From contig OZ251457.1 in assembly GCA_965242565.1 (NCBI GenBank), positions 2,904,653 to 2,968,652 on the forward strand: a stretch of DNA of 64,000 nt. Reading direction: 5' to 3'. Source of the DNA: Dehalococcoidia bacterium (GTDB lineage Bacteria > Chloroflexota > Dehalococcoidia > Bin125). The notes beneath the pieces were generated by a model. It made no database searches. It saw only the letters and a list, made by a program, of their open reading frames with translations, and had not been told where the DNA came from. Below, one piece after another: positions 22,938-47,880 of the stretch (positions within the stretch are counted from its first letter, which is position 1; each line of letters starts with the position of its first letter). A program made the position numbers and the translations under genes.

Positions 22938-23106
22938 TCCCACTCCGTCATACCCGCCCCTACTCCTCCGTCATACCCGCGCTTGCCGCGGGTATCTCGA
23001 CGCCAACGCGCCAAACGCAACGCAACACTTCCCGTCATTCCCGCCCACAAATTCCGTCATTCCAGCGCACGCTGAGCCTGCCCCCGGCTCGAACGGGGGA
23101 ATCCAT
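22938..23106. repeat. member of a dispersed intergenic palindromic repeat family (CCGTCAYWCCCGC sub-repeats around a hairpin ACCCGCG-CTTGC-CGCGGGT)
   Basis: The motif block ccgtcatacccgcgcttgccgcgggtatctcg plus ccgtcattcccgc copies recurs at 24995, 29801, 33926, 44370 and 47580. Confidence 0.8.
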
Positions 23107-26230: not shown

Positions 26231-27157
26231 ATGCTCGCCGCCTCGCGTCCGATCCTGCTCGCCGCGCCGCTCGTCGCGCTGCTGCTGATCATCGTGCTCT
26301 TCTTCGGCATCCCCGACGATCCCGACGCGCGCAAAGTCGCCGCGCGCATGAGCGACACCCACATCGTCCATCTGATCGGCGACGCCGAGCGCCCGGCGGT
26401 GCTCGCGCTGCCCCCGACCTTCGACGCCGAGCGCCCCTATCTGTTACTGATTGGCCTGCACGCATACGACAGCAACGCTTGGGACTACGACCAGTACCTG
26501 CGGCTCTCCGCGCTGACCGGCAGCGAACACCTGGCACTGCTGCTCCCCCACGGCCTGGAGGACGCCGACGGTTCGCGCTTCTGGAACGCGACGCCTTGGT
26601 GCTGCGCGCCGGAGGGCGGCGGCGTAGACGACACGGCGTACATCGCGTCGCTGCTTGAGGATGCCGCCGAGCTCATGCGGATCGAGCAGGTCGTCGCCGT
26701 CGGCTATTCCAACGGCGGCTTCATGGCCCACCGGCTCGCCTGCGACGGCTTGGACGGGCTGACCGCCGTCGTCAGTCTGGCGGGCTCGTCGTTCGCCGAT
26801 GAGGAGCGCTGCGCCGACGCCGCGCCCATCTCCGTCCTCCAGATCCACGGCGACGCCGACGATGAAGTGCTCTACGCCGGCGAGCTGGGGGTCGGCTACC
26901 CGGGCGCGCTCGCCGTCGCCCACCGCTGGGCGCGCCGCGCCGGATGCGACATCGGGCCGCCCGCCAACGTGCCCCGGCTGGACCTTGACCCCGGCATCGA
27001 CGGCGCGGAGACCGCCGTCCAGCGCTGGTCCGACGGCTGCGCGGACGATGTGGTCGTCGAGTTGTGGACCATCCACGGCGGCGGCCACGAACCGGACATC
27101 GAAGAGACGCTCGCAGCTCAAATCGTGGCTTGGCTGCGCGAGGTGTCGCCGCGCTGA
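26231..27157 (+). CDS. secreted alpha/beta hydrolase, PHB-depolymerase/esterase (LpqC-like) family, single domain
   Basis: N-terminal TM/signal segment. Nucleophile elbow GYSNGGFM and conserved RFWNATPWCC. Confidence 0.75.
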   Translation: MLAASRPILLAAPLVALLLIIVLFFGIPDDPDARKVAARMSDTHIVHLIGDAERPAVLALPPTFDAERPYLLLIGLHAYDSNAWDYDQYLRLSALTGSEHLALLLPHGLEDADGSRFWNATPWCCAPEGGGVDDTAYIASLLEDAAELMRIEQVVAVGYSNGGFMAHRLACDGLDGLTAVVSLAGSSFADEERCADAAPISVLQIHGDADDEVLYAGELGVGYPGALAVAHRWARRAGCDIGPPANVPRLDLDPGIDGAETAVQRWSDGCADDVVVELWTIHGGGHEPDIEETLAAQIVAWLREVSPR

Positions 27158-27182
27158 GCGGCGGCGCGTGTACGCTCAGTCC

Positions 27183-29141
27183 ATGCGCGCGCTGCTGTTC
27201 GTCCCTTTCCTGGTCGCGGCCTTGCTGCTCGCCCTTGCCTGCGGCGGCGACGATCAGCAGCAGCAGGAGACCGTCTCGCCTCCGCCGCCCCCGCAGCAGC
27301 AGGTAGAGCAACAGCAGACGGAGCAGCCGCAGGCCGCGCAGACCGAGAGCGCCGCCGCGCAACAGGCCGATCAGACGGTCGCTGCGCAGGATCAAACGCA
27401 GGATCAGGCGCAGGCCAACACGCAGGCCAAAGCGCAGGCCAAAGCGCAAGAAGGGGCGCAGGACCAGAAGAAGCCCGCCGCAGACGTCAAGAAGCTGACC
27501 ATCGGCGGCGAGCGCCCCGCAGCGCTGTTGCTGCCCGCGAACTACGACGACAGCGAGCCGCTCCCGCTGGTGCTGATGCTGCACGGCTACGGCGGCAGCG
27601 CAGCCGAGAACGACGCCTGGCTGGGGGCGTCGCAACTCGTCGCCGAGGGCGGCTTCGGACTCATTCTGCCCGACGGCACGCTCGATCAGGATGGCAACCG
27701 CTTTTGGAATGCGACCGATGCCTGCTGCAACTTCTACGGTTCCGAGGTCGATGACGCCGCCTACCTCGCGGCGCTGGTCGCGGAGGCGCAGACCTACGGC
27801 GGCGCAGGTCTGGTCGCCGCCGTGGGCGTCTCCAACGGCGGCTTTATGGCCTACCGGCTGGCCTGCGAGGGGCTGCCCGGCCTGATCGCTGTGGTCAGCG
27901 TGATGGGCTCCTCCTTCAACGATCCGGCCGATTGCGCCGCGCCCGCGCCGGTCTCCGTGTTGCAGATTCACGGCGACGCGGACGCGATCGTGCGCTACGA
28001 CGGCGGCCTGGCCGACGGCGAAGGCCGCCAATTCGCCGATACGCCCGGCGCGAGCGAAGTGACGCGGCGCTGGGCGGAGCGCGCCGGCTGCGACCTCGAC
28101 GCGCGCGAAGACCTCAAGCCGATCGAGATCGACTACAGCGCAGACGGCGCGGAAACGACGGTGCAGCGCATCCGACAGGGCTGCGCCGACGGCATCACTG
28201 TCGAGCTGTGGACGATGCAGGGCGTCGGCCACTTCCCCGCCTTCCAGCCGCACGCCATCGGCGCCGTCCTCTTCACCTGGCTCGGGGCGGCTGCGAGCGC
28301 GACCGCGGGCGAACAGCCGTCCGCGGCCGCAAGCGGCCTACAGACCTTCATCATCGGCGGCGACCGCCCCGCCGCGTTCCTGCTGCCCGAAACCCGTCTG
28401 CTCGGACCGCTGCCGTTGGTCGTCCTGCTGCACGGTTTCGGTATGAACGCCCCGCAGATTGACGGTTACTTCGGCCTCTCCCAACTCGCCGAAGACGGTC
28501 TGATCGCCCTGATCCTGCCCGACGGCACGCAGAACCCCGACGGCGATCGTTTCTGGAACGCCACCCCCGAATGCTGCAAATTCGAGGGCCAGGATGTCGA
28601 CGATGTCGGCTATCTCAACGGCCTCGTCGCCGAAGCCCGCCAATACGCCTCGTTCGACCGCCTCTACCTCGTCGGCTACTCCAACGGCGGCTTCATGTCC
28701 TACCGCATGGCCTGCGAAAACATGCCCGGCCTCACCGCGCTGGTCAGCGTCGCCGGCTCCTCCTACATTGACCCCGCCGACTGTCCGAATCCCACCCCCG
28801 TCTCGGTACTGCAAATTCACGGCACCGCCGACGTACTGGTGCCCTACGACGACGATCCGCGCGGCGTGCCCGGCGCAGAGACGCTCACCCGCCGCTGGGC
28901 GGAGCGCGCCGGCTGCGATCTCGCCGCCGCCGAAACGCTCGACCCCATCGAACTCGATCACAGCGTTTCCGACACCGAAACGACGGTCCGCCGCCTCCGC
29001 GAAGGCTGCGCCGACGGCGTTACCGTCGAACTGTGGACGCTGCATGGCATCGGCCACGGCCCGGCCTTTTCGCCATCCGTCATCGCCGGCCGGATCATCG
29101 GCTGGCTGCTCATTGAGTCGCGCGCCGAAGCCGCGTCATGA
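27183..29141 (+). CDS. lipoprotein with two tandem PHB-depolymerase/esterase-like domains, joined to the N-terminus by a Q/A-rich linker
   Basis: ATG at 27183, in frame. Lipobox-like LALACGG. Two nucleophile elbows (GVSNGGFMAY and GYSNGGFMSY) and two RFWNAT(D/P)xCC motifs. Confidence 0.75.
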   Translation: MRALLFVPFLVAALLLALACGGDDQQQQETVSPPPPPQQQVEQQQTEQPQAAQTESAAAQQADQTVAAQDQTQDQAQANTQAKAQAKAQEGAQDQKKPAADVKKLTIGGERPAALLLPANYDDSEPLPLVLMLHGYGGSAAENDAWLGASQLVAEGGFGLILPDGTLDQDGNRFWNATDACCNFYGSEVDDAAYLAALVAEAQTYGGAGLVAAVGVSNGGFMAYRLACEGLPGLIAVVSVMGSSFNDPADCAAPAPVSVLQIHGDADAIVRYDGGLADGEGRQFADTPGASEVTRRWAERAGCDLDAREDLKPIEIDYSADGAETTVQRIRQGCADGITVELWTMQGVGHFPAFQPHAIGAVLFTWLGAAASATAGEQPSAAASGLQTFIIGGDRPAAFLLPETRLLGPLPLVVLLHGFGMNAPQIDGYFGLSQLAEDGLIALILPDGTQNPDGDRFWNATPECCKFEGQDVDDVGYLNGLVAEARQYASFDRLYLVGYSNGGFMSYRMACENMPGLTALVSVAGSSYIDPADCPNPTPVSVLQIHGTADVLVPYDDDPRGVPGAETLTRRWAERAGCDLAAAETLDPIELDHSVSDTETTVRRLREGCADGVTVELWTLHGIGHGPAFSPSVIAGRIIGWLLIESRAEAAS

Positions 29142-29626
29142 CCGACGAACCCGGCGCGGAACATCTGCTGGCAATGCTCGAGATCGCCCGCCACGATCGC
29201 ATAGCGATTGCCGTTGCGCCAGGCATTGCACCCGGCCGAGCCGCCGACCTCGCTGAAACAATCACCGCCCGCCTCAATCAGGCGGGCGTCCCCCCAAGCT
29301 GCCGCGCCTGGATCGTCGCCCAGCCCGCCCAGGCCGACTCCCCCAACGCCGACGTACAGACCGCCGCCGTACTCGCCGCGCTCTCCGACGCCATCGGCGC
29401 GTCTCCGCTCACCATCCACAACCCGCGCGACGTCGACGACCTCATCTTCCGCCGCCGCCCGCCTAACCAGAAGCGCGGCGGCGTTTACCTCAACGCCCAA
29501 TGGATGCAGGCCGCCATCCGCATCGCCTGCGGCCCGCCCGACGAGCTCGCCGCCGGCCTCTCCGCCTGGTTCAACGACCCGGCTTCGCTCGTCCCAGAGG
29601 ACCTATCGGCGACGCTCGTCCTCTAG
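29138..29626 (+). CDS. hypothetical protein
   Basis: ORF with coding-like composition and an ATGA overlap with the upstream gene. No domain recognised. Confidence 0.4.
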   Translation: MTDEPGAEHLLAMLEIARHDRIAIAVAPGIAPGRAADLAETITARLNQAGVPPSCRAWIVAQPAQADSPNADVQTAAVLAALSDAIGASPLTIHNPRDVDDLIFRRRPPNQKRGGVYLNAQWMQAAIRIACGPPDELAAGLSAWFNDPASLVPEDLSATLVL

Positions 29627-29800
29627 AGTGTGTTCACACAAGCCCGCCTGCTGCCAGTGGTACACACCCAAGTTCCGTCGCCCCCGACTTGATCGGGGGC
29701 CCAAACCCAACTCTGTTCACGGCACGAGGGGGCGGTTTGCCTGCCAATGTCCGTTCACAGGTCATCCCGATACGTCGCGCCGCCGACAGCCCGTCGTAGG

Positions 29801-29892
29801 CGGTTCCCCCGTTCGGGCTGGGGGCCGATTCCCGCTCGGGGGCGGGAATGACGGAGAGATGGGCGCGGGAGTGGCGGGAGGTGTGAACGCGC
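29801..29892. repeat. dispersed palindromic repeat family member
   Basis: Reads gttcgggctgggggccgattcccgctcgggggcgggaatgacggagag...gcgctctag. Confidence 0.7.
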
Positions 29893-29893
29893 T

Positions 29894-30032
29894 CTAGCCC
29901 CGCGGCAGGCCCAGGCCCCGCGTCGCGATGATGTTCCGCTGGATCTCGCTCGTGCCGCCCTCGATCGTGTTCGCGATCGAGCGCAGGAAGCTGTAGGCGT
30001 AGCGGCCCCGCTTCGGCGCGTGCGGGTCCCGC
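29894..30032 (-). pseudogene. 3' remnant of an acyl-CoA dehydrogenase gene: a duplicate of the last ~45 codons of the gene at 31865..33058
   Basis: About 103 bp are identical to 31900..32003 (gcgatgatgttccgctggatctcgctcgtgccgccctcgatcgtgttcgcgatcgagcgcaggaagctgtaggcgtagcggccccgcttcggcgcgtgcgg). The fragment would encode ...GRYAYSFLRSIANTIEGGTSEIQRNIIATRGLGLPRG*. No upstream coding continuation exists. Confidence 0.7.
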
Positions 30033-30045
30033 CCTGCCGACGCCC

Positions 30046-31836
30046 CTATTCCTCAATCGGGCGCAGCACCATGTACTTCTCCAGCCATTCGACGATCTCG
30101 GGCGTGAGGTAGCGCTCCATGTTCGGGACTGCCGGATCTGGCACGCCCGCATGATTGAGAATGTAAAACGAGCAGAGCTCGGCGCTCAGCTCTCTGGGAC
30201 TGATGGAGTAGATGTTGCGGAAGATGCTGCCCCTTGGCAACACCCAGCTCCAGCCATTCGAGTGCCGCCGGAAGCCGACGAGCTTGATGAACTCCTGCGC
30301 CGCATCGGGCATGTGCTCGATCGCACGCGCGTAGATCCAACCTCTTTCCACCCACCCCAAAGACGGATGGTCAAACACGACCGGCCGGCCGGGCCTGTCT
30401 TGCTGAACGTCATAGTAGTTTTGCTGCCCATGGCACAGTTCGTGCGCGTCGAGGCTGGGACTTAGCAAGTGTTCCCCGCGCTGCTGGTAGACTCGATGTG
30501 CCGGTGATCCTTCCTCGGCATTGTGAGTGATGACAGGAAGTACTTGTAGGAGCAGGCCGCTGTCGCCGGTCGAATGGTATAGACCCCCCCCAAAGCCGCG
30601 GCCTCCGGGGACTATCTGTCTGACGATGCACAGGTGAGGCAGTACAGGAAGCAGCTGAGTTACCGCATGCTGCACATCCGGATGGTATGTCTGGGCGCAT
30701 GGCGCGTCGTCATCGAATATCCGGAATTCTGGGTTGAAGCGACGTCGATCTCGTGTTTCCGCCCAGGACAGGCACTGCCGGCCGGCGTCGATTGTTCCTG
30801 TGAGCTGGTCGTAGGTGCAAATGTTGATGCAGTCCGCCCAGAGTGTGCCGGCCGGAACAAACTCCGCGTAGTCGTCGGCGAACTGCTGAATCAGCACGGC
30901 TCCCACATTGTATTGGTTGTAAGCGCGCCAGCCGTCATCATGGAGGATGATCGTGTTCGCCATACAGCCCATGGTGGCCAGTCGTGCTTTCAGGTGATAG
31001 AGCGAGCCGCCGCCGTATTGGACCGGGAAGAGTCGGTCGTATTCGTCGGGGATCTCGGCGATGACCTGAGTTGGTTGGAGTGCGGCCCCGATCGTCGGGT
31101 CGGTTGCGGTCGGGTCGTTGAGAACCTCTCGCAGGTCAACGCAGTCGGCCCAAAGCGCGCCGGCGGGCGCGGAGCGTGCGTAGGTCTCGACGAATTGCCG
31201 ATTCTGAGCCGCCGGAACGCTAAATCGACTGTACGCGCTCCGCCGGTCATCGTTTACCACGATGATGTCGGCGATGCAGCCCGCGATGGCCAGGCGGAGA
31301 TACAGGTCGTACAGAGAGCCGCCGGTCCACCGGAATGGAAAGAACTGGTCGTGCTCGCCCGGAATGTCGGCGATGATGGGGCGGTTCTCCGGCTCGAGTC
31401 CATGGCTGGCGGGCGGCGGGTCGCCAAGCCGGCTGGTCAGGTCCGCGCAGTTTACCCAGAGTGGTCCCGACGGCACGAAACTCCCGTAGGTTTCGATGAA
31501 CGGTGAGTTTATCGCAGCGGGAACGTCGAAGTGGTTGTAGCCGTGCCACCGGCCGCCGTCGTAGAGCCAGATCGTGTTGGCGATGCAGCCGCGCACGGCG
31601 AGCTGCGCGCGGAGCTGCCGGAGAGAGCCGCCGCTCCATTGAACCGCAAAGAAATGCCCGTAGTCGTCGGGAATGGCGGCGACAAGCTCGATCGGTTGTC
31701 CCGATCTGTTGTGTGCTTCGTCGCCGGACTCTGCCTGTTCGCCGTCGTCCGCGGCCGCTGAACCAACGCCGATCAACAGCGCCGCCAGCAAGGACGCGGC
31801 CAGGATCAGCGCACGAGTCACACTCTGCACACACAT
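30046..31836 (-). CDS. secreted protein with three tandem ~95-aa repeats and a C-terminal HExxH (HELCH) putative zinc-peptidase-like domain
   Basis: Signal peptide LILAASLLAALLIGVGSAAA. Three copies of IPDxY..F(F/P)..(W/Y)xGGSL..L...LA..GC(I/M)ANTI.L.D.GRW..YN.F.VPAA.N..F.ETY...VP.G.LW..C.DL. A C-terminal HELCHGQQNYYD is also present. Confidence 0.65.
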   Translation of the reverse strand: MCVQSVTRALILAASLLAALLIGVGSAAADDGEQAESGDEAHNRSGQPIELVAAIPDDYGHFFAVQWSGGSLRQLRAQLAVRGCIANTIWLYDGGRWHGYNHFDVPAAINSPFIETYGSFVPSGPLWVNCADLTSRLGDPPPASHGLEPENRPIIADIPGEHDQFFPFRWTGGSLYDLYLRLAIAGCIADIIVVNDDRRSAYSRFSVPAAQNRQFVETYARSAPAGALWADCVDLREVLNDPTATDPTIGAALQPTQVIAEIPDEYDRLFPVQYGGGSLYHLKARLATMGCMANTIILHDDGWRAYNQYNVGAVLIQQFADDYAEFVPAGTLWADCINICTYDQLTGTIDAGRQCLSWAETRDRRRFNPEFRIFDDDAPCAQTYHPDVQHAVTQLLPVLPHLCIVRQIVPGGRGFGGGLYHSTGDSGLLLQVLPVITHNAEEGSPAHRVYQQRGEHLLSPSLDAHELCHGQQNYYDVQQDRPGRPVVFDHPSLGWVERGWIYARAIEHMPDAAQEFIKLVGFRRHSNGWSWVLPRGSIFRNIYSISPRELSAELCSFYILNHAGVPDPAVPNMERYLTPEIVEWLEKYMVLRPIEE

Positions 31837-31864
31837 CTCCTGTCGTCGCGCTACAGGCGAGGCG

Positions 31865-33058
31865 TCAGCCGCGCGGCAGCCCCAGCCCTCGCGTTGCGAT
31901 GATGTTCCGCTGGATCTCGCTCGTGCCGCCCTCGATCGTGTTCGCGATCGAGCGCAGGAAGCTGTAGGCGTAGCGGCCCCGCTTCGGCGCGTGCGGATCC
32001 CCGCCCTGCAGCTGGCCGTAGAGACCCAGCACCTTCATCGCCGTGCCCTGAATCCGCTGGTTCAGCTCCATCGCGTAGAGCTTCGCCATCGACGCCTCGT
32101 GATTCGGGATCATCCCCTGGCTCTGCATGCTCACGATCCGGTAGGAGATCATCATCGCCGTCTGCGCCTCGATGTAGCGATCCGCCAGCGCGTTGCGCGT
32201 CTCCTCGTTGTCGCCCAGCGACGACATCCCGCTGCCCCGGTACTGCTTCGCCACGTCGATGATCGCCTCCACCCCCTGCCGCATCCCCACCGCCGAGCCG
32301 ATGCTGCTCCGCTCGAAATCGAGCGTCGTCACCGCGCCGTACCAGCCGCGGTTCACCTCGCCCAGAATGTGTCGGCTGGGAATCCGCACATCCTCGAAGA
32401 AGACCTCGTTGAACTCGTGCGTGTTGGTCATGTTCACCAGCGGCCGCACTTCCACGCCCGGCGAGTGCATGTCCAGCATGAAGTAGGTGATCCCCTTGTG
32501 CTTGGGCGCGTCGGGGTCCGTCCGCGCCAGCAGGATCATCCAGTCCGCCCGGTGTGCGCCCGAGGTCCAGATCTTCTGCCCGTTCACCACCCAGTCGTCG
32601 CCGTCCTTCACCGCCCGCGTCTGGAGCGACGCCAGGTCCGAGCCGCTGCCCGGCTCCGAGTAGCCCTGGCACCAGATCGCCTCGCCGCTCAGGATCGGCG
32701 GCAGATGCTCCGCCTGCTGCTGCTCCGTGCCGATCGTGATGATCGTCGGCCCCGCCATCCCGATCGCGATCCCGCCCGGGCGCGGCGCGCGCGCCTCCGC
32801 CATCTCCTCGTTGAAGATGAACTGCTGCATCACGCTCAGTCCTGCGCCGCCGTATTGCTCCGGCCAGGCCGGCGCGATCCAGCCCCGCTGCGCCAGCTCG
32901 CCCTCCCAGGCCCGCATCGAGGGCGTGCGGTCGAACATCGCCGCACTCCGCGACTCCTCGCGCATCCGCTGCCGGCGCGGCTCAAACTCGCTGCCGATGA
33001 ACTCCCGCACCGTCGTGCGGAACGCCGCTTCCTCGCCCGTGTCCCTGAAGTCGACCAT
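31865..33058 (-). CDS. acyl-CoA dehydrogenase
   Basis: Start taken at MVDFRDTGEEAAFR (cat at 33056..33058). Full ACAD domain series with QGYSEPGSGSD and GQKIWTSGAH. Paralogue of the partial gene at 1..1093. Confidence 0.85.
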   Translation of the reverse strand: MVDFRDTGEEAAFRTTVREFIGSEFEPRRQRMREESRSAAMFDRTPSMRAWEGELAQRGWIAPAWPEQYGGAGLSVMQQFIFNEEMAEARAPRPGGIAIGMAGPTIITIGTEQQQAEHLPPILSGEAIWCQGYSEPGSGSDLASLQTRAVKDGDDWVVNGQKIWTSGAHRADWMILLARTDPDAPKHKGITYFMLDMHSPGVEVRPLVNMTNTHEFNEVFFEDVRIPSRHILGEVNRGWYGAVTTLDFERSSIGSAVGMRQGVEAIIDVAKQYRGSGMSSLGDNEETRNALADRYIEAQTAMMISYRIVSMQSQGMIPNHEASMAKLYAMELNQRIQGTAMKVLGLYGQLQGGDPHAPKRGRYAYSFLRSIANTIEGGTSEIQRNIIATRGLGLPRG

Positions 33059-33187
33059 CGTTCCAGCCTTCCCCGTCGACGCCCGCCGTCGGGCGCCCAA
33101 TGACCGCAGCCTATCGCATCGGTACCATTGCCTCACAGCCCCTCTACGGTCCCAGCGCGGACGCAGCGCGAAGGAGCAGGGAGCAGA

Positions 33188-34099: not shown

Positions 34100-36160
34100 A
34101 TGCTCGCTCGCCTCGGACTGACAGCTCTCATCGTGGCCACCGCCGCGCTCGCGCTGCTGCTGGTGAATGCCGGTACCGGGCGAGCCGAAATAATCGACGA
34201 GGGCGTCATCTCGATCGTCGCACGCTTGGCTCCCGACGATCGCATTGAGTTCGCCACGGTCATCTTTCCCGAGGAACGGGTTCTCCCCGAGCGGCGCTTC
34301 GTCGACGCCTCTGTCCGGCACGGCCGTTGGTTGCAGAGCTCGTTGATCGACTTTCGATGGGGACGCTCCGGGCGGATCGTCGCGCGGCGCCTGGCCGACG
34401 GCCGATTCACCGCGGGGTTGCGCTTGACTGGCTCTGAGGAAGTGCTCGTGCCCTACGGTTACGGCGGACGTTTCCACATGGATAACTTGGCTGGCGAGTG
34501 GCGGATCGTTGGCGTGATCGTCAGTTCCGCTATGCAGCATGCCTTTGTCGTGCGGCGTGGCGATGCAGCGATCAGCGCCGGCTACGACCACTCTTGCGCC
34601 GTCCTTGCCGACCGCGCGATCCAGTGTTGGGGCTCCAACGAGTTCGGTCAGAGCGCCGCGCCCGACGGCCAGTTTTTCTACGTCAGCGCGGGCCGCCGGC
34701 ACACCTGCGCGCTCAACATGACGCAAGAGGTTCTTTGCTGGGGATCCAACGAAGGGGGGCGCAGCGATCCGCCGGCGGGACGCTTCAACTCAATCAGCGT
34801 TGGCTATGACCACGCCTGCGGAGTGGCCTTTGGCGGCGGCCCTGTTCACTGCTGGGGCCGCAATGTCTACGGGCAGACCGACGCCCCAGCCGGGCGATTC
34901 ACCGCCGTATCCGCCGGGCATCGCCACACCTGCGCAATTGATGAAGCCAGCGCGCTGCACTGCTGGGGCGACAACCGCTGGGGCCAGTCCGACCCACCCT
35001 CCGGACGCTTCGCCGCCGTCAGCGTCGGCAACTCTCACTCCTGCGCGCTCAGCATCGATGGCATCCTCGACTGCTGGGGCTACACCGACGAGGCCCACCC
35101 CATCGAAGACCTCGACGGCAACCGCTACGAATTCCTCAGCGCCGGCGGCTGGCATGTCTGTGGCATCGCCCAGGGCGGACGCATGGATTGCGTCGGCTGG
35201 AACGGCTACGGGCACGCCGTCTCCCCGCCCGGCCGCTACGCGCTCGTCAGCGGCGCCGAAGAGCACACCTGCGCCGTCACCCTTAAAGGTGCGGTGACCT
35301 GCTGGGGACGCAACGGCTTCGGCCAGACCGACTCGCCCGGCGGCGCGTTCGCCTCGCTTGCCTCCGGCTACGACCACACCTGCGCTATTGACGAAAGCGG
35401 CGCGCTGTCCTGCTGGGGCGCCAACGGCGACGGCCAGATCGAAGCGCCCGATGGCGAATACATCGCTGTCGCCCCCGGCGACTGGCACACCTGCGCCGTC
35501 CGCGCCTCAGGCGAAATCGCCTGCTGGGGCTTCGACGGCTACGGCCAGATCGCCGACGCGCCCGCCGGCGGCGGTTACACCGACATCGTCGCCGGGCGTT
35601 CCTCCGCCTGCGCCCTGCACCAATCCGGCCGCGTCGACTGCTGGGGACGCAACGACCACGGCCAGGCCGAGCCACCCGACGCGCAGTTCACCGCAATCAG
35701 CGCGTCCTCCCTGCACGTTTGCGGCGTCGCAGCCGACGCGCAAATCCACTGCTGGGGCCGCAACCTCGAAGACCAGTCCGACGCCCCGCCCGGCCGCTAC
35801 ACCGCCGTCGCCGCTGCCGACTTCCACACCTGCGCCCTGCGCGAATCCGGCGAGATCGCCTGCTGGGGCCAACCAGACGACGACCGCACCAGTGCCCCCA
35901 CCGGGCGCTACACCGCCATCGGCGCCGGCCTCGCCCACACCTGCGCCGTGAGCGAATCCGGCCAACTCTCCTGCTGGGGCATCAACTTCTGGGCCCAGGC
36001 GGATCCGCCCGAGGGCGAGTACGCCGCAGTGGTAGCCGGCAACTCCCACAGCTGCGCCCTGCGCGCCAACGGCGAAATCACCTGCTGGGGCATCACCGTC
36101 TACGGCCAAACCGATGTGCCGGAGCGTTGGCGGGACGACGGGTCGATTAGCTGGGAGTGA
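34100..36160 (+). CDS. secreted RCC1-repeat (beta-propeller) protein
   Basis: N-terminal signal/TM segment LTALIVATAALALLLVNA. More than ten HTC(A/G)...CWG repeat blocks. The N-terminal duplicated module resembles that of the 23522..24853 protein. Confidence 0.8.
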   Translation: MLARLGLTALIVATAALALLLVNAGTGRAEIIDEGVISIVARLAPDDRIEFATVIFPEERVLPERRFVDASVRHGRWLQSSLIDFRWGRSGRIVARRLADGRFTAGLRLTGSEEVLVPYGYGGRFHMDNLAGEWRIVGVIVSSAMQHAFVVRRGDAAISAGYDHSCAVLADRAIQCWGSNEFGQSAAPDGQFFYVSAGRRHTCALNMTQEVLCWGSNEGGRSDPPAGRFNSISVGYDHACGVAFGGGPVHCWGRNVYGQTDAPAGRFTAVSAGHRHTCAIDEASALHCWGDNRWGQSDPPSGRFAAVSVGNSHSCALSIDGILDCWGYTDEAHPIEDLDGNRYEFLSAGGWHVCGIAQGGRMDCVGWNGYGHAVSPPGRYALVSGAEEHTCAVTLKGAVTCWGRNGFGQTDSPGGAFASLASGYDHTCAIDESGALSCWGANGDGQIEAPDGEYIAVAPGDWHTCAVRASGEIACWGFDGYGQIADAPAGGGYTDIVAGRSSACALHQSGRVDCWGRNDHGQAEPPDAQFTAISASSLHVCGVAADAQIHCWGRNLEDQSDAPPGRYTAVAAADFHTCALRESGEIACWGQPDDDRTSAPTGRYTAIGAGLAHTCAVSESGQLSCWGINFWAQADPPEGEYAAVVAGNSHSCALRANGEITCWGITVYGQTDVPERWRDDGSISWE

Positions 36161-47579: not shown

Positions 47580-47880
47580 CCGCCATCCCCGTCCCGCTCC
47601 ATCACTCCTGCCTCGTTCCGTCACTCCCGCCCCGCGCCGTCACTCCCGCCCTACTCCGTCATACCCGCGCTTGCCGCGGGTATCTCGCCGCCAACGCCAG
47701 GGGCCCCATTCCTCCGTCACTCCCGCCCTACTCCGTCATACCCGCGCTTGCCGCGGGTATCTCGCCGCCAACGCCAGGGGCCCCATTCCTCCGTCATTCC
47801 CGCCCCCTCCTCCCGTCATTCCCGCCCCCGAGCGGGAATCAGCCCCATCCCACCGCAGCCCTCCCCCAACCCCCTTCCGT
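47580..47880. repeat. ~300-bp array of the dispersed repeat family: two tandem ~66-bp units (each ccctactccgtcatacccgcgcttgccgcgggtatctcgccgccaacgccaggggccccattcctccgtcactcccg) flanked by further CCGTCAYTCCCGC sub-repeats
   Basis: A direct tandem duplication is visible at 47640..47770. No unique spacers are present, so this is not a CRISPR array. Confidence 0.8.

Follow-up and report, generated by a model that had tools for sequence, protein, structure and literature searches.

Apparent displacement of an acyl-CoA dehydrogenase 3' end beside a gene for an HExxH protein in a Dehalococcoidia bacterium

How does the end of a conserved metabolic gene come to stand twice on a chromosome, with a single gene enclosed between its two copies? 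This question is raised by a 64,000-nt stretch of contig OZ251457.1 (positions 2,904,653 to 2,968,652 of the forward strand; hereafter the window) from the Dehalococcoidia bacterium assembly GCA_965242565.1. On the minus strand of the window, an intact acyl-CoA dehydrogenase (ACAD) gene (31865..33061) is followed by a gene encoding a 596-aa protein with an HExxH motif (30046..31836, minus strand; the HExxH gene) and then by a second copy of the ACAD tail. The attached tail is referred to as copy B and the detached tail as copy A; both lie on the minus strand. It is probable, if well short of certain, that the arrangement is a 3'-end displacement scar: incoming DNA would have recombined via ACAD homology and displaced the resident tail, and gene conversion would have followed. 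On this view, two haplotypes of the locus that had already diverged, only one of which carried the HExxH gene, recombined with each other.

The duplication of the ACAD tail, proposed in the initial annotation together with the alignment by which it could be checked, was confirmed by an ungapped comparison and by a repeat search. Copy B (31865..~32020) is the in-frame end of the ACAD gene, closes with TGA, and leads without interruption into the spacer and the HExxH gene. Copy A (29894..~30045) is a displaced, silent tail of ~45-50 codons that ends with TAG (29896..29894); one nucleotide is deleted close to its 5' end, and it lacks a start codon. The copies are in register at an offset of 1971, and their longest exact run in the ungapped comparison (31896..31996 in copy B and 29925..30025 in copy A) measures 101 nt rather than the ~103 nt first given; the whole repeat, at ~147-155 nt, is slightly longer than had been claimed. 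In the repeat search, the pair was recovered as family D15 (135 nt, 96% identity). Seven differences fall within the 31 nt that run from this core through the stop codons. On the 5' side of the core, a further ~20-24 nt of homology at ~75% identity, including the 1-nt deletion in copy A, extend up to the HExxH stop codon. Both copies translate into the same 44 residues, DPHAPKRGRYAYSFLRSIANTIEGGTSEIQRNIIATRGLGLPRG, followed by a stop codon, and copy A weakly resembles the terminal part of Pfam Acyl-CoA_dh_1, with an E-value of 0.0016 that does not reach the cut-off. No further near-identical tail copy was found within the window, where the next matches are paralogues with at most 45% amino-acid identity.

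Between the copies there is, as had been noted from the outset, a single long open reading frame (ORF; 31836..30046, minus strand, 596 aa), the stop codon of which (TAG, 30048..30046) abuts the fragment. At the non-homologous junction (30033..30048, minus strand), this stop is joined to ACAD sequence at approximately codon -49; homology to copy B fades there, and three strains (the window and two others described below) differ by small indels. In particular, the 3' end of the HExxH gene shows no homology to ACAD at this right junction, while the left side lies inside ACAD homology. The short stretches TAG/TAC and GG(G/C) align at the joint and might represent microhomology of a few nt, at a point where the strains differ by indels. 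Taken together, these features support the proposal that an insertion of gene size joins the 3' end of ACAD and has left a stranded, untranslatable fragment.

A search of 5.8 billion proteins gave just two clusters that closely resemble the HExxH product. The window's own cluster (P0001) has two members from other assemblies, L082 (a 44-kb contig from ERZ26050812 with 94-97% DNA identity over ~21 kb) and L083 (a 1.95-kb contig from SRR18249228), both of which show the same duplication. An assembly artefact is ruled out by the same arrangement in these independent assemblies, and the duplication is real and fixed in this species-level group. Nor is the event private to this genome: strains L082 and L083, which are ~96% identical, carry it, and the 80 other species-level loci do not. 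The second cluster (P0002) is represented by a protein that is 68% identical to the HExxH product, has four N-terminal repeats instead of three, and is encoded on a 3-kb metagenome contig, L081 (sample ERZ23495733). On this contig, the ACAD tail (TGA) is followed by a 45-nt spacer, the HExxH gene, ~400 nt of repeats, and a convergent homologue of orf162, a 162-aa gene that in the window occupies 29138..29626 (plus strand) and is the usual downstream neighbour of ACAD. No stranded ACAD tail is present in L081, since local alignment downstream of its HExxH gene was no better than that obtained with shuffled sequences. The orf162 product of the window is 70% identical to that of L081, 72% to that of L037, and 68% to that of L048; L081 belongs to another species. 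The two sides of the window's locus thus have different counterparts: the copy B side, where 'TGA CGC' precedes the spacer and the beginning of the HExxH gene, is co-linear with L081, and the copy A side (TAG, then a repeat element and orf162) lines up with relatives in which the site is empty. Scans of Joint Genome Institute (JGI) metagenome DNA with the copy A tail plus its flank and with a degenerate copy B tail plus TGA CGC yielded neither an empty-site allele nor a further carrier. Exact-protein look-ups of the window's HExxH and ACAD products, of P0001, and of P0074 likewise gave no recorded entry.

The differences between the copies indicate how they arose. In the window, six sense codons of the 44 shared ones differ between A and B, all at synonymous third positions, and the stop codons are TAG (A) and TGA (B). 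L082 has eight A/B differences, again all synonymous, which makes nine distinct sites across the two strains. A random substitution in the tail is synonymous with a probability of ~0.29, and nine out of nine corresponds to roughly 1e-5. Because all nine variable sense sites are synonymous, A and B appear to have diverged inside working genes; this synonymous-only divergence identifies them as separate alleles, and, to judge from the substitution pattern, they are the tails of two once-functional ACAD alleles rather than the outcome of decay after duplication in situ. In both the window and L082, copy A is free of frame-destroying and non-synonymous changes across its 44 codons. Copy A cannot date from the split between the window's lineage and L081, because it lacks non-synonymous changes while orf162 lost 30% amino-acid identity. 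The idea that the ACAD gene had been 'repaired' after the insertion does not hold either, as the tail now attached to ACAD represents a second allele; it runs on directly into the inserted gene and differs from copy A only synonymously and in its stop codon. An origin of the repeat from a tandem ACAD paralogue was rejected, given that paralogues share 45-60% protein identity, compared with 94-96% DNA identity between A and B.

The same pattern bears on a simpler explanation, in which the ACAD tail was duplicated in situ when the gene was inserted (by a tandem or very long target-site duplication) and the useless copy then diverged. The exact 101-nt run does look recent, and the head of copy A carries an indel. 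However, the nine variable sense sites are all synonymous, one stop has been swapped for another, and the differences are clustered at the ends. Moreover, ~150 nt is far above the length of transposase-type target duplications, no transposase is present in the ~21 kb annotated in L082, and the copy B flank agrees with the arrangement in L081; duplication in situ is thus highly improbable. Target-site duplications of transposons and insertion sequences (IS) are about 2-15 bp long, exact, and accompanied by a transposase and terminal inverted repeats. Such an origin was considered separately and rejected: the ~150-nt repeat is inexact outside its core, no transposase was found, and an inverted-repeat search revealed no inverted repeats bracketing 30046..31864.

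Comparison among the strains shows that the locus is a patchwork. Between the window and L082, a tract without a single difference (30850..32200) covers ~340 nt at the end of ACAD, copy B and the spacer, as well as the part of the HExxH gene that encodes the N-terminal two thirds of its product; the DNA flanking it shows ~2-15% differences per 200 nt. L083, which begins at 31943, is identical to the window from there except for one difference in 30846-30945, and copy B is identical in L082 and L083. This tract is a recently shared recombination tract. Copy A is strain-specific: its core is fully B-like in the window and 98/101 identical in L082 (three synonymous sites differ), and in L083 its head is B-like, without the 1-nt deletion, and a CCG>CTG change is present. 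The A copies of the window and L082 differ at five positions, all of them third positions, four of which are switches to the B state. Because the extent of the A/B match differs by strain and a zero-difference tract is shared, homologous recombination is evidently frequent at the locus. The exact 101-nt core is most simply explained by gene conversion between A and B.

It might be argued that copy A instead has a function, whether it encodes a peptide that is translated or acts in regulation or termination, and that selection, not recency or gene conversion, has kept it. The absence of any change of a non-synonymous type in two strains would be consistent with this idea, as would the third-position nature of all five differences between the strains' A copies. 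However, copy A has no start codon: an in-frame TGA (30055..30053) stands immediately ahead of it and no ATG, GTG, or TTG follows. Its frame relative to the HExxH gene is different in L083, which also carries the CCG>CTG change. At four of the five differences, the change is towards the B state, the outcome expected of gene conversion, and background divergence just downstream is also near zero. A function for copy A is barely credible on these grounds.

If the HExxH gene was inserted, relatives should show what the site looks like when the gene is missing. Dehalococcoidia metagenome-assembled genomes (MAGs) were scanned with one genome per species, giving 80 loci, 45 of which have ACAD and an orf162 homologue, convergent to it, on the same contig; the gap is taken between their stop codons. 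This gap is at most 100 nt (often 2 nt) and devoid of content in 22/45 loci, and hence the comparison with gene-less relatives, suggested in the initial annotation, gave the expected picture of an ACAD stop codon followed directly by the convergent orf162 homologue. In six loci, the gap is 101-500 nt and, where inspected (L001, L044), filled with dispersed palindromic repeat arrays. A gap of ~660-745 nt, found in 13 loci, contains a small ORF and a PIN-domain ORF in 12 of the 13 where inspected, with repeat arrays instead in L003 (660 nt); the PIN domain in the slot scores 26.4 bits vs a 23.6-bit cut-off. The remaining four gaps exceed 1 kb; in L002 and L037, the two species closest to that of the window, they are occupied by a paralogous gene with RCC1 repeats, and in L005 and L010 by esterase genes. 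The ACAD/orf162 junction is thus a variable slot across species. The HExxH gene occupies it in none of the 80 related species-level loci, and no second ACAD tail was found among the 48 closest loci, which yielded only distant paralogues and one frameshifted match in L044.

Individual contents of the slot can be seen at L017:11189-11903 (the PIN pair, ~715 nt in 12 loci), L002:11434-13488 (the RCC1-repeat paralogue, 684 aa), and L001:11195-11638. At L044:11015..11190, the match to ACAD changes frame near codon 356, owing either to a frameshift (a pseudogene) or to a sequencing error.

These observations can be joined into a sequence of events, of which the direction (gain of the HExxH gene) and the type of intermediate are inferred. 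The resident order would have been ACAD(TAG), the palindromic element, and convergent orf162. Incoming DNA from a related Dehalococcoidia lineage would have carried the last ~50 ACAD codons (TGA) and, behind a short spacer that includes a ribosome-binding site, the HExxH gene. Recombination through the ACAD homology may have proceeded either by a single crossover of a circularised fragment or by a homologous anchor combined with a non-homologous join. The incoming tail would thereby have become the working end of ACAD, leaving the protein sequence unchanged, and the HExxH gene would have landed 28 nt behind the ACAD stop codon, probably within the same transcript. The resident tail would have been pushed downstream as a silent fragment. 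Finally, later gene conversion or homologous exchange, between the copies and among strains, would have homogenised the middle 101 nt.

Synonymous divergence (dS) speaks to the direction of the event. The HExxH gene has a dS of 0.40 to L081, about half that of the flanking orf162 (0.76), and its G+C content at third codon positions (GC3) is 0.75 vs 0.83-0.95 for neighbouring genes. A gain of tail B and the HExxH gene is favoured because of this lower dS to L081, the atypical GC3, and the absence of the gene from the other sampled species. The opposite polarity has also been considered: the HExxH gene and tail B could be resident, derived from an ancestor shared with the L081 lineage, and the empty-site DNA (tail A, the palindromic element, orf162, and beyond) could be incoming. 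In that case, recombination would have been homologous on the orf162/esterase side and non-homologous behind the HExxH stop codon, a failed replacement that stranded the incoming tail. The same final structure would be predicted, and exchange at the locus is clearly frequent. The affinities of the tails to L081 and L037 are statistically indistinguishable, and orf162 is about equidistant from L081, L037, and L048 (70, 72, and 68%), which is compatible with an ancestor shared with L081. However, the HExxH gene is missing from the closest species by ACAD (L037, L002, L048) as well as from all 80 loci, and the dS and GC3 values noted above also count against it; the opposite polarity is therefore unlikely.

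Several points weigh against displacement of the resident tail by an incoming one. Over 71 sense nt, copy B has six differences to L081 and copy A seven, and to L037 the counts are eight (B) and six (A); these differences are not significant. The comparison of dS values rests on ~150 orf162 codons and on genes of different codon bias. The cores differ at 0-3 of 101 positions despite 5/33 in the tail, a discrepancy that needs a conversion step or a crossover within the core. Moreover, the sole close relative of the cassette is a 3-kb contig, and no excised or empty-site allele of this species appeared in the metagenome scans. A breakpoint internal to ACAD was sought relative to L037 and L002; divergence rises at the head of the repeat, but this segment is variable in all relatives and other dips occur, and the signal was not relied on.

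An extension of the displacement reading would make the unit of tail, spacer, and HExxH gene a recombinase-free mobile cassette, excised as a circle between the repeats by host homologous recombination, which would leave ACAD intact, and re-inserted by a single crossover. This reading is unlikely. If it were true, each re-insertion into the conserved ACAD 3' end of a related genome would displace that genome's tail, and the zero-divergence tract in three strains together with the strain-specific A copies would record a recent spread. Such a cassette would extend Rhs-type tip displacement to metabolic genes and would offer a general route of gene gain and loss in uncultured Dehalococcoidia.

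Integrative islands target the 3' ends of genes and bring a replacement 3' end, leaving att repeats at tRNA, tmRNA, and protein-coding genes. Like them, the present locus has bracketing direct repeats and a target kept intact by a 3' end that the insert supplies. Unlike them, it has no integrase and a single-gene insert, and the extent of identity varies between strains. One could nevertheless suppose that an integrase, encoded elsewhere or since lost, joined an att site mimicking the ACAD 3' end, with the copies as attL and attR and the 101 nt as the crossover core. Such a view would fit with the position of the direct repeats, where a conserved gene ends, with the restoration of that gene by the element-side copy, and with the block of identity that has diverged sequence on either side. 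However, no integrase or transposase domain occurs in precomputed Pfam annotation over ~21 kb of co-linear L082, where the earlier remark that no recombinase or IS lies nearby holds as well. The supposed element consists of one gene without Pfam, NCBIfam, or tested PHROG-type signatures, and in L081, where the gene occupies the equivalent position, there is no second repeat. Furthermore, the extent of A/B identity varies among the window, L082, and L083, as in homologous exchange and unlike a fixed core. Site-specific integration is accordingly very unlikely. A gene with a DprA-type domain lies near the L082 locus and is not diagnostic of DNA uptake.

Displacement of a resident tail by host recombination has precedents. 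In Rhs proteins (and in contact-dependent growth inhibition, CDI, systems), C-terminal displacement has been attributed to a single homologous crossover with a circular intermediate and without a dedicated recombinase (Jackson et al. 2009; PMC2935791). As in Rhs loci, an intact gene is accompanied by a downstream, dissociated 3' end that keeps an identical core stretch, and the incoming tip brings a linked gene (PMC2935791). In particular, the ACAD gene is complete, the fragment lacks the 5' part, and the core is identical at 101/101 nt in the window and 98/101 in L082. In contrast to Rhs, where the attached and the displaced tips are non-homologous and specify different C-termini, the ACAD tips are homologous and encode the same 44 residues, and nothing is gained in the host gene. 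The host is a metabolic ACAD rather than a polymorphic toxin, the passenger encodes a secreted HExxH protein instead of immunity, and a single displaced tip is present in place of an array.

A second precedent is found in type VI secretion effector-immunity modules, for the displacement of which homology-facilitated illegitimate recombination was proposed (Kirchberger et al. 2017; PMC5361080). Those modules share with the present locus a conserved upstream anchor, a non-homologous far end, and old 3' material that has been shifted downstream and kept. The organism and the gene class differ, and the orphan immunity genes retained there are functional, whereas the fragment here appears silent. 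Homology-facilitated illegitimate recombination is known from natural transformation and conjugation (PMC3240628; refs 41, 42, 47 of PMC5361080), and it likewise combines one homologous with one illegitimate end and places a few kb of foreign DNA beside the anchor. The experimental events usually delete the recipient DNA between the joints; here, ~150 nt of homology are found on both sides. Such homology on both sides agrees better with a circular intermediate or with a join located right where the anchor begins. Either a crossover with a circle (the Rhs model) or homology-facilitated illegitimate recombination would fit the locus.

The locus thus adds a further example to a type of recombination scar that is already known, although the host gene and the lineage are unusual, and it reveals no new mechanism. 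It offers a well-resolved natural case of how a single accessory gene can be added beside a conserved gene by host homologous recombination only, and the scar is datable. The direct repeats would, in addition, permit precise loss of the HExxH gene by homologous recombination. Judging from the names of the MAGs, the uncultured lineage, which is not amenable to genetics, is probably sponge-associated.

The inserted gene (30046..31836) encodes an N-terminal hydrophobic, signal-like segment (the signal peptide was judged by eye only), then three repeats of ~103 aa, each containing Cys, and finally a C-terminal domain of ~250 aa that bears the motif HELCH (H465, E466, H469; 30430..30444, minus strand). 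At the DNA level, the three repeats recur with a spacing of 309-312 nt (family D18). The protein belongs to a family with 97 homologues, mostly ~380 aa long with one repeat, many of which come from Dehalococcoidia assemblies. In 55 family members, H465, E466, C468, H469, Q472, and E549 are conserved without exception; E549 is a candidate third zinc ligand on the basis of this conservation. The family has no Pfam or NCBIfam match, the product has no sequence match in PDB, and no PHROG-type signature was found among those tested. The AlphaFold model of the C-terminal domain has a pLDDT of 78. Its best Foldseek match in PDB is BepA (M48), which is not significant (E = 0.19, probability 0.30), and the zincins thimet oligopeptidase, anthrax lethal factor, and BlaR1 match at E > 1. 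A metallopeptidase is a reasonable guess for the modelled product.

The family evolves rapidly, and its members are flagged here as fast-evolving secreted proteins. The number of ~103-aa repeats varies, with three in the window (30820..31700), four in L081 (L081:240..1440), and one in most of the ~380-aa members. The C-terminal domain (30050..30850, minus strand) exists as two haplotypes ~10% apart within the species, with 41 non-synonymous and 13 synonymous codon differences. The ratio of non-synonymous to synonymous divergence (dN/dS) is ~0.9 over the whole gene, with the HELCH block conserved, and L083 changes haplotype at 30149-30248, inside this domain. These data suggest diversifying selection or relaxed constraint together with intragenic recombination in the C-terminal domain.

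The ACAD gene, by comparison, has a dN/dS of 0.01 and a dS of 0.086 relative to L082. It encodes 398 aa from an ATG at 33061 to the stop codon TGA at 31867..31865. Its start agrees with that of relatives, which begin with MVDFRD, and all relatives examined share the same last 23 residues. The Pfam domains Acyl-CoA_dh_N, Acyl-CoA_dh_M, and Acyl-CoA_dh_1 all score above their cut-offs. The best NCBIfam match, pimC_large, reaches 273 bits vs a 624-bit cut-off, and the protein is thus not an equivalog of that family. The 28-nt spacer between ACAD and the HExxH gene (31837..31864, minus strand) contains AGGAG and is homologous to the 45-nt spacer of L081, and a terminator scan detected nothing terminator-like in it. 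With this short gap, the AGGAG, and no terminator-like site, the sequence suggests that the HExxH gene is probably co-transcribed with ACAD.

On the other side of copy A, a palindromic intergenic element (29627..29893) lies between two convergent stop codons, those of copy A and orf162, and includes a member of the dispersed CCGTCATWCCYGCGC repeat family. Its inverted arms occupy 29623-29639 and 29881-29897. The 267-nt inter-stop spacer (29623..29897) forms one long imperfect palindrome, the arms of which, CTAGAGTGTGTTCACAC and GTGTGAACGCGCTCTAG, take in both stop codons. As RNA, the element folds with -136.9 kcal/mol (z = -3.55), and the spacer looks like a small non-autonomous repeat element inserted at CTAG where ACAD and orf162 meet. 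The core CCGTCATWCCYGCGC has 12 matches in the window vs 0.09 expected. Members at 22945..23068, 25012, 29840, 33994, 44420, and 47656..47827 are often tandem, and the family is abundant in related genomes. It also follows the ACAD stop codon directly in the insertion-free relatives L037, L002, L001, L003, and L044. The proposal that this palindromic repeat mediated the event is thus unsupported, as it is present in relatives without the insertion and neither junction touches it; it is a resident feature that is not implicated in the event.

The convergent orf162, for its part, has no Pfam or NCBIfam match. Next to it, a 780-aa ORF (26799..29141, plus strand) begins with a low-complexity stretch rich in Q and A, behind which esterase-like modules (families D4, D8) are repeated in tandem two or three times. 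Among relatives, both the number of esterase-like modules and the number of adjacent paralogues vary widely. Upstream of ACAD, a gene at 34100..36160 (plus strand) encodes an RCC1-like repeat protein of 686 aa and consists of 111-nt units (family D1), with orthologues of 68-70% identity in L002, L037, and L048. In L002 and L037, a second RCC1-repeat paralogue, 44-45% identical, occupies the ACAD/orf162 slot.

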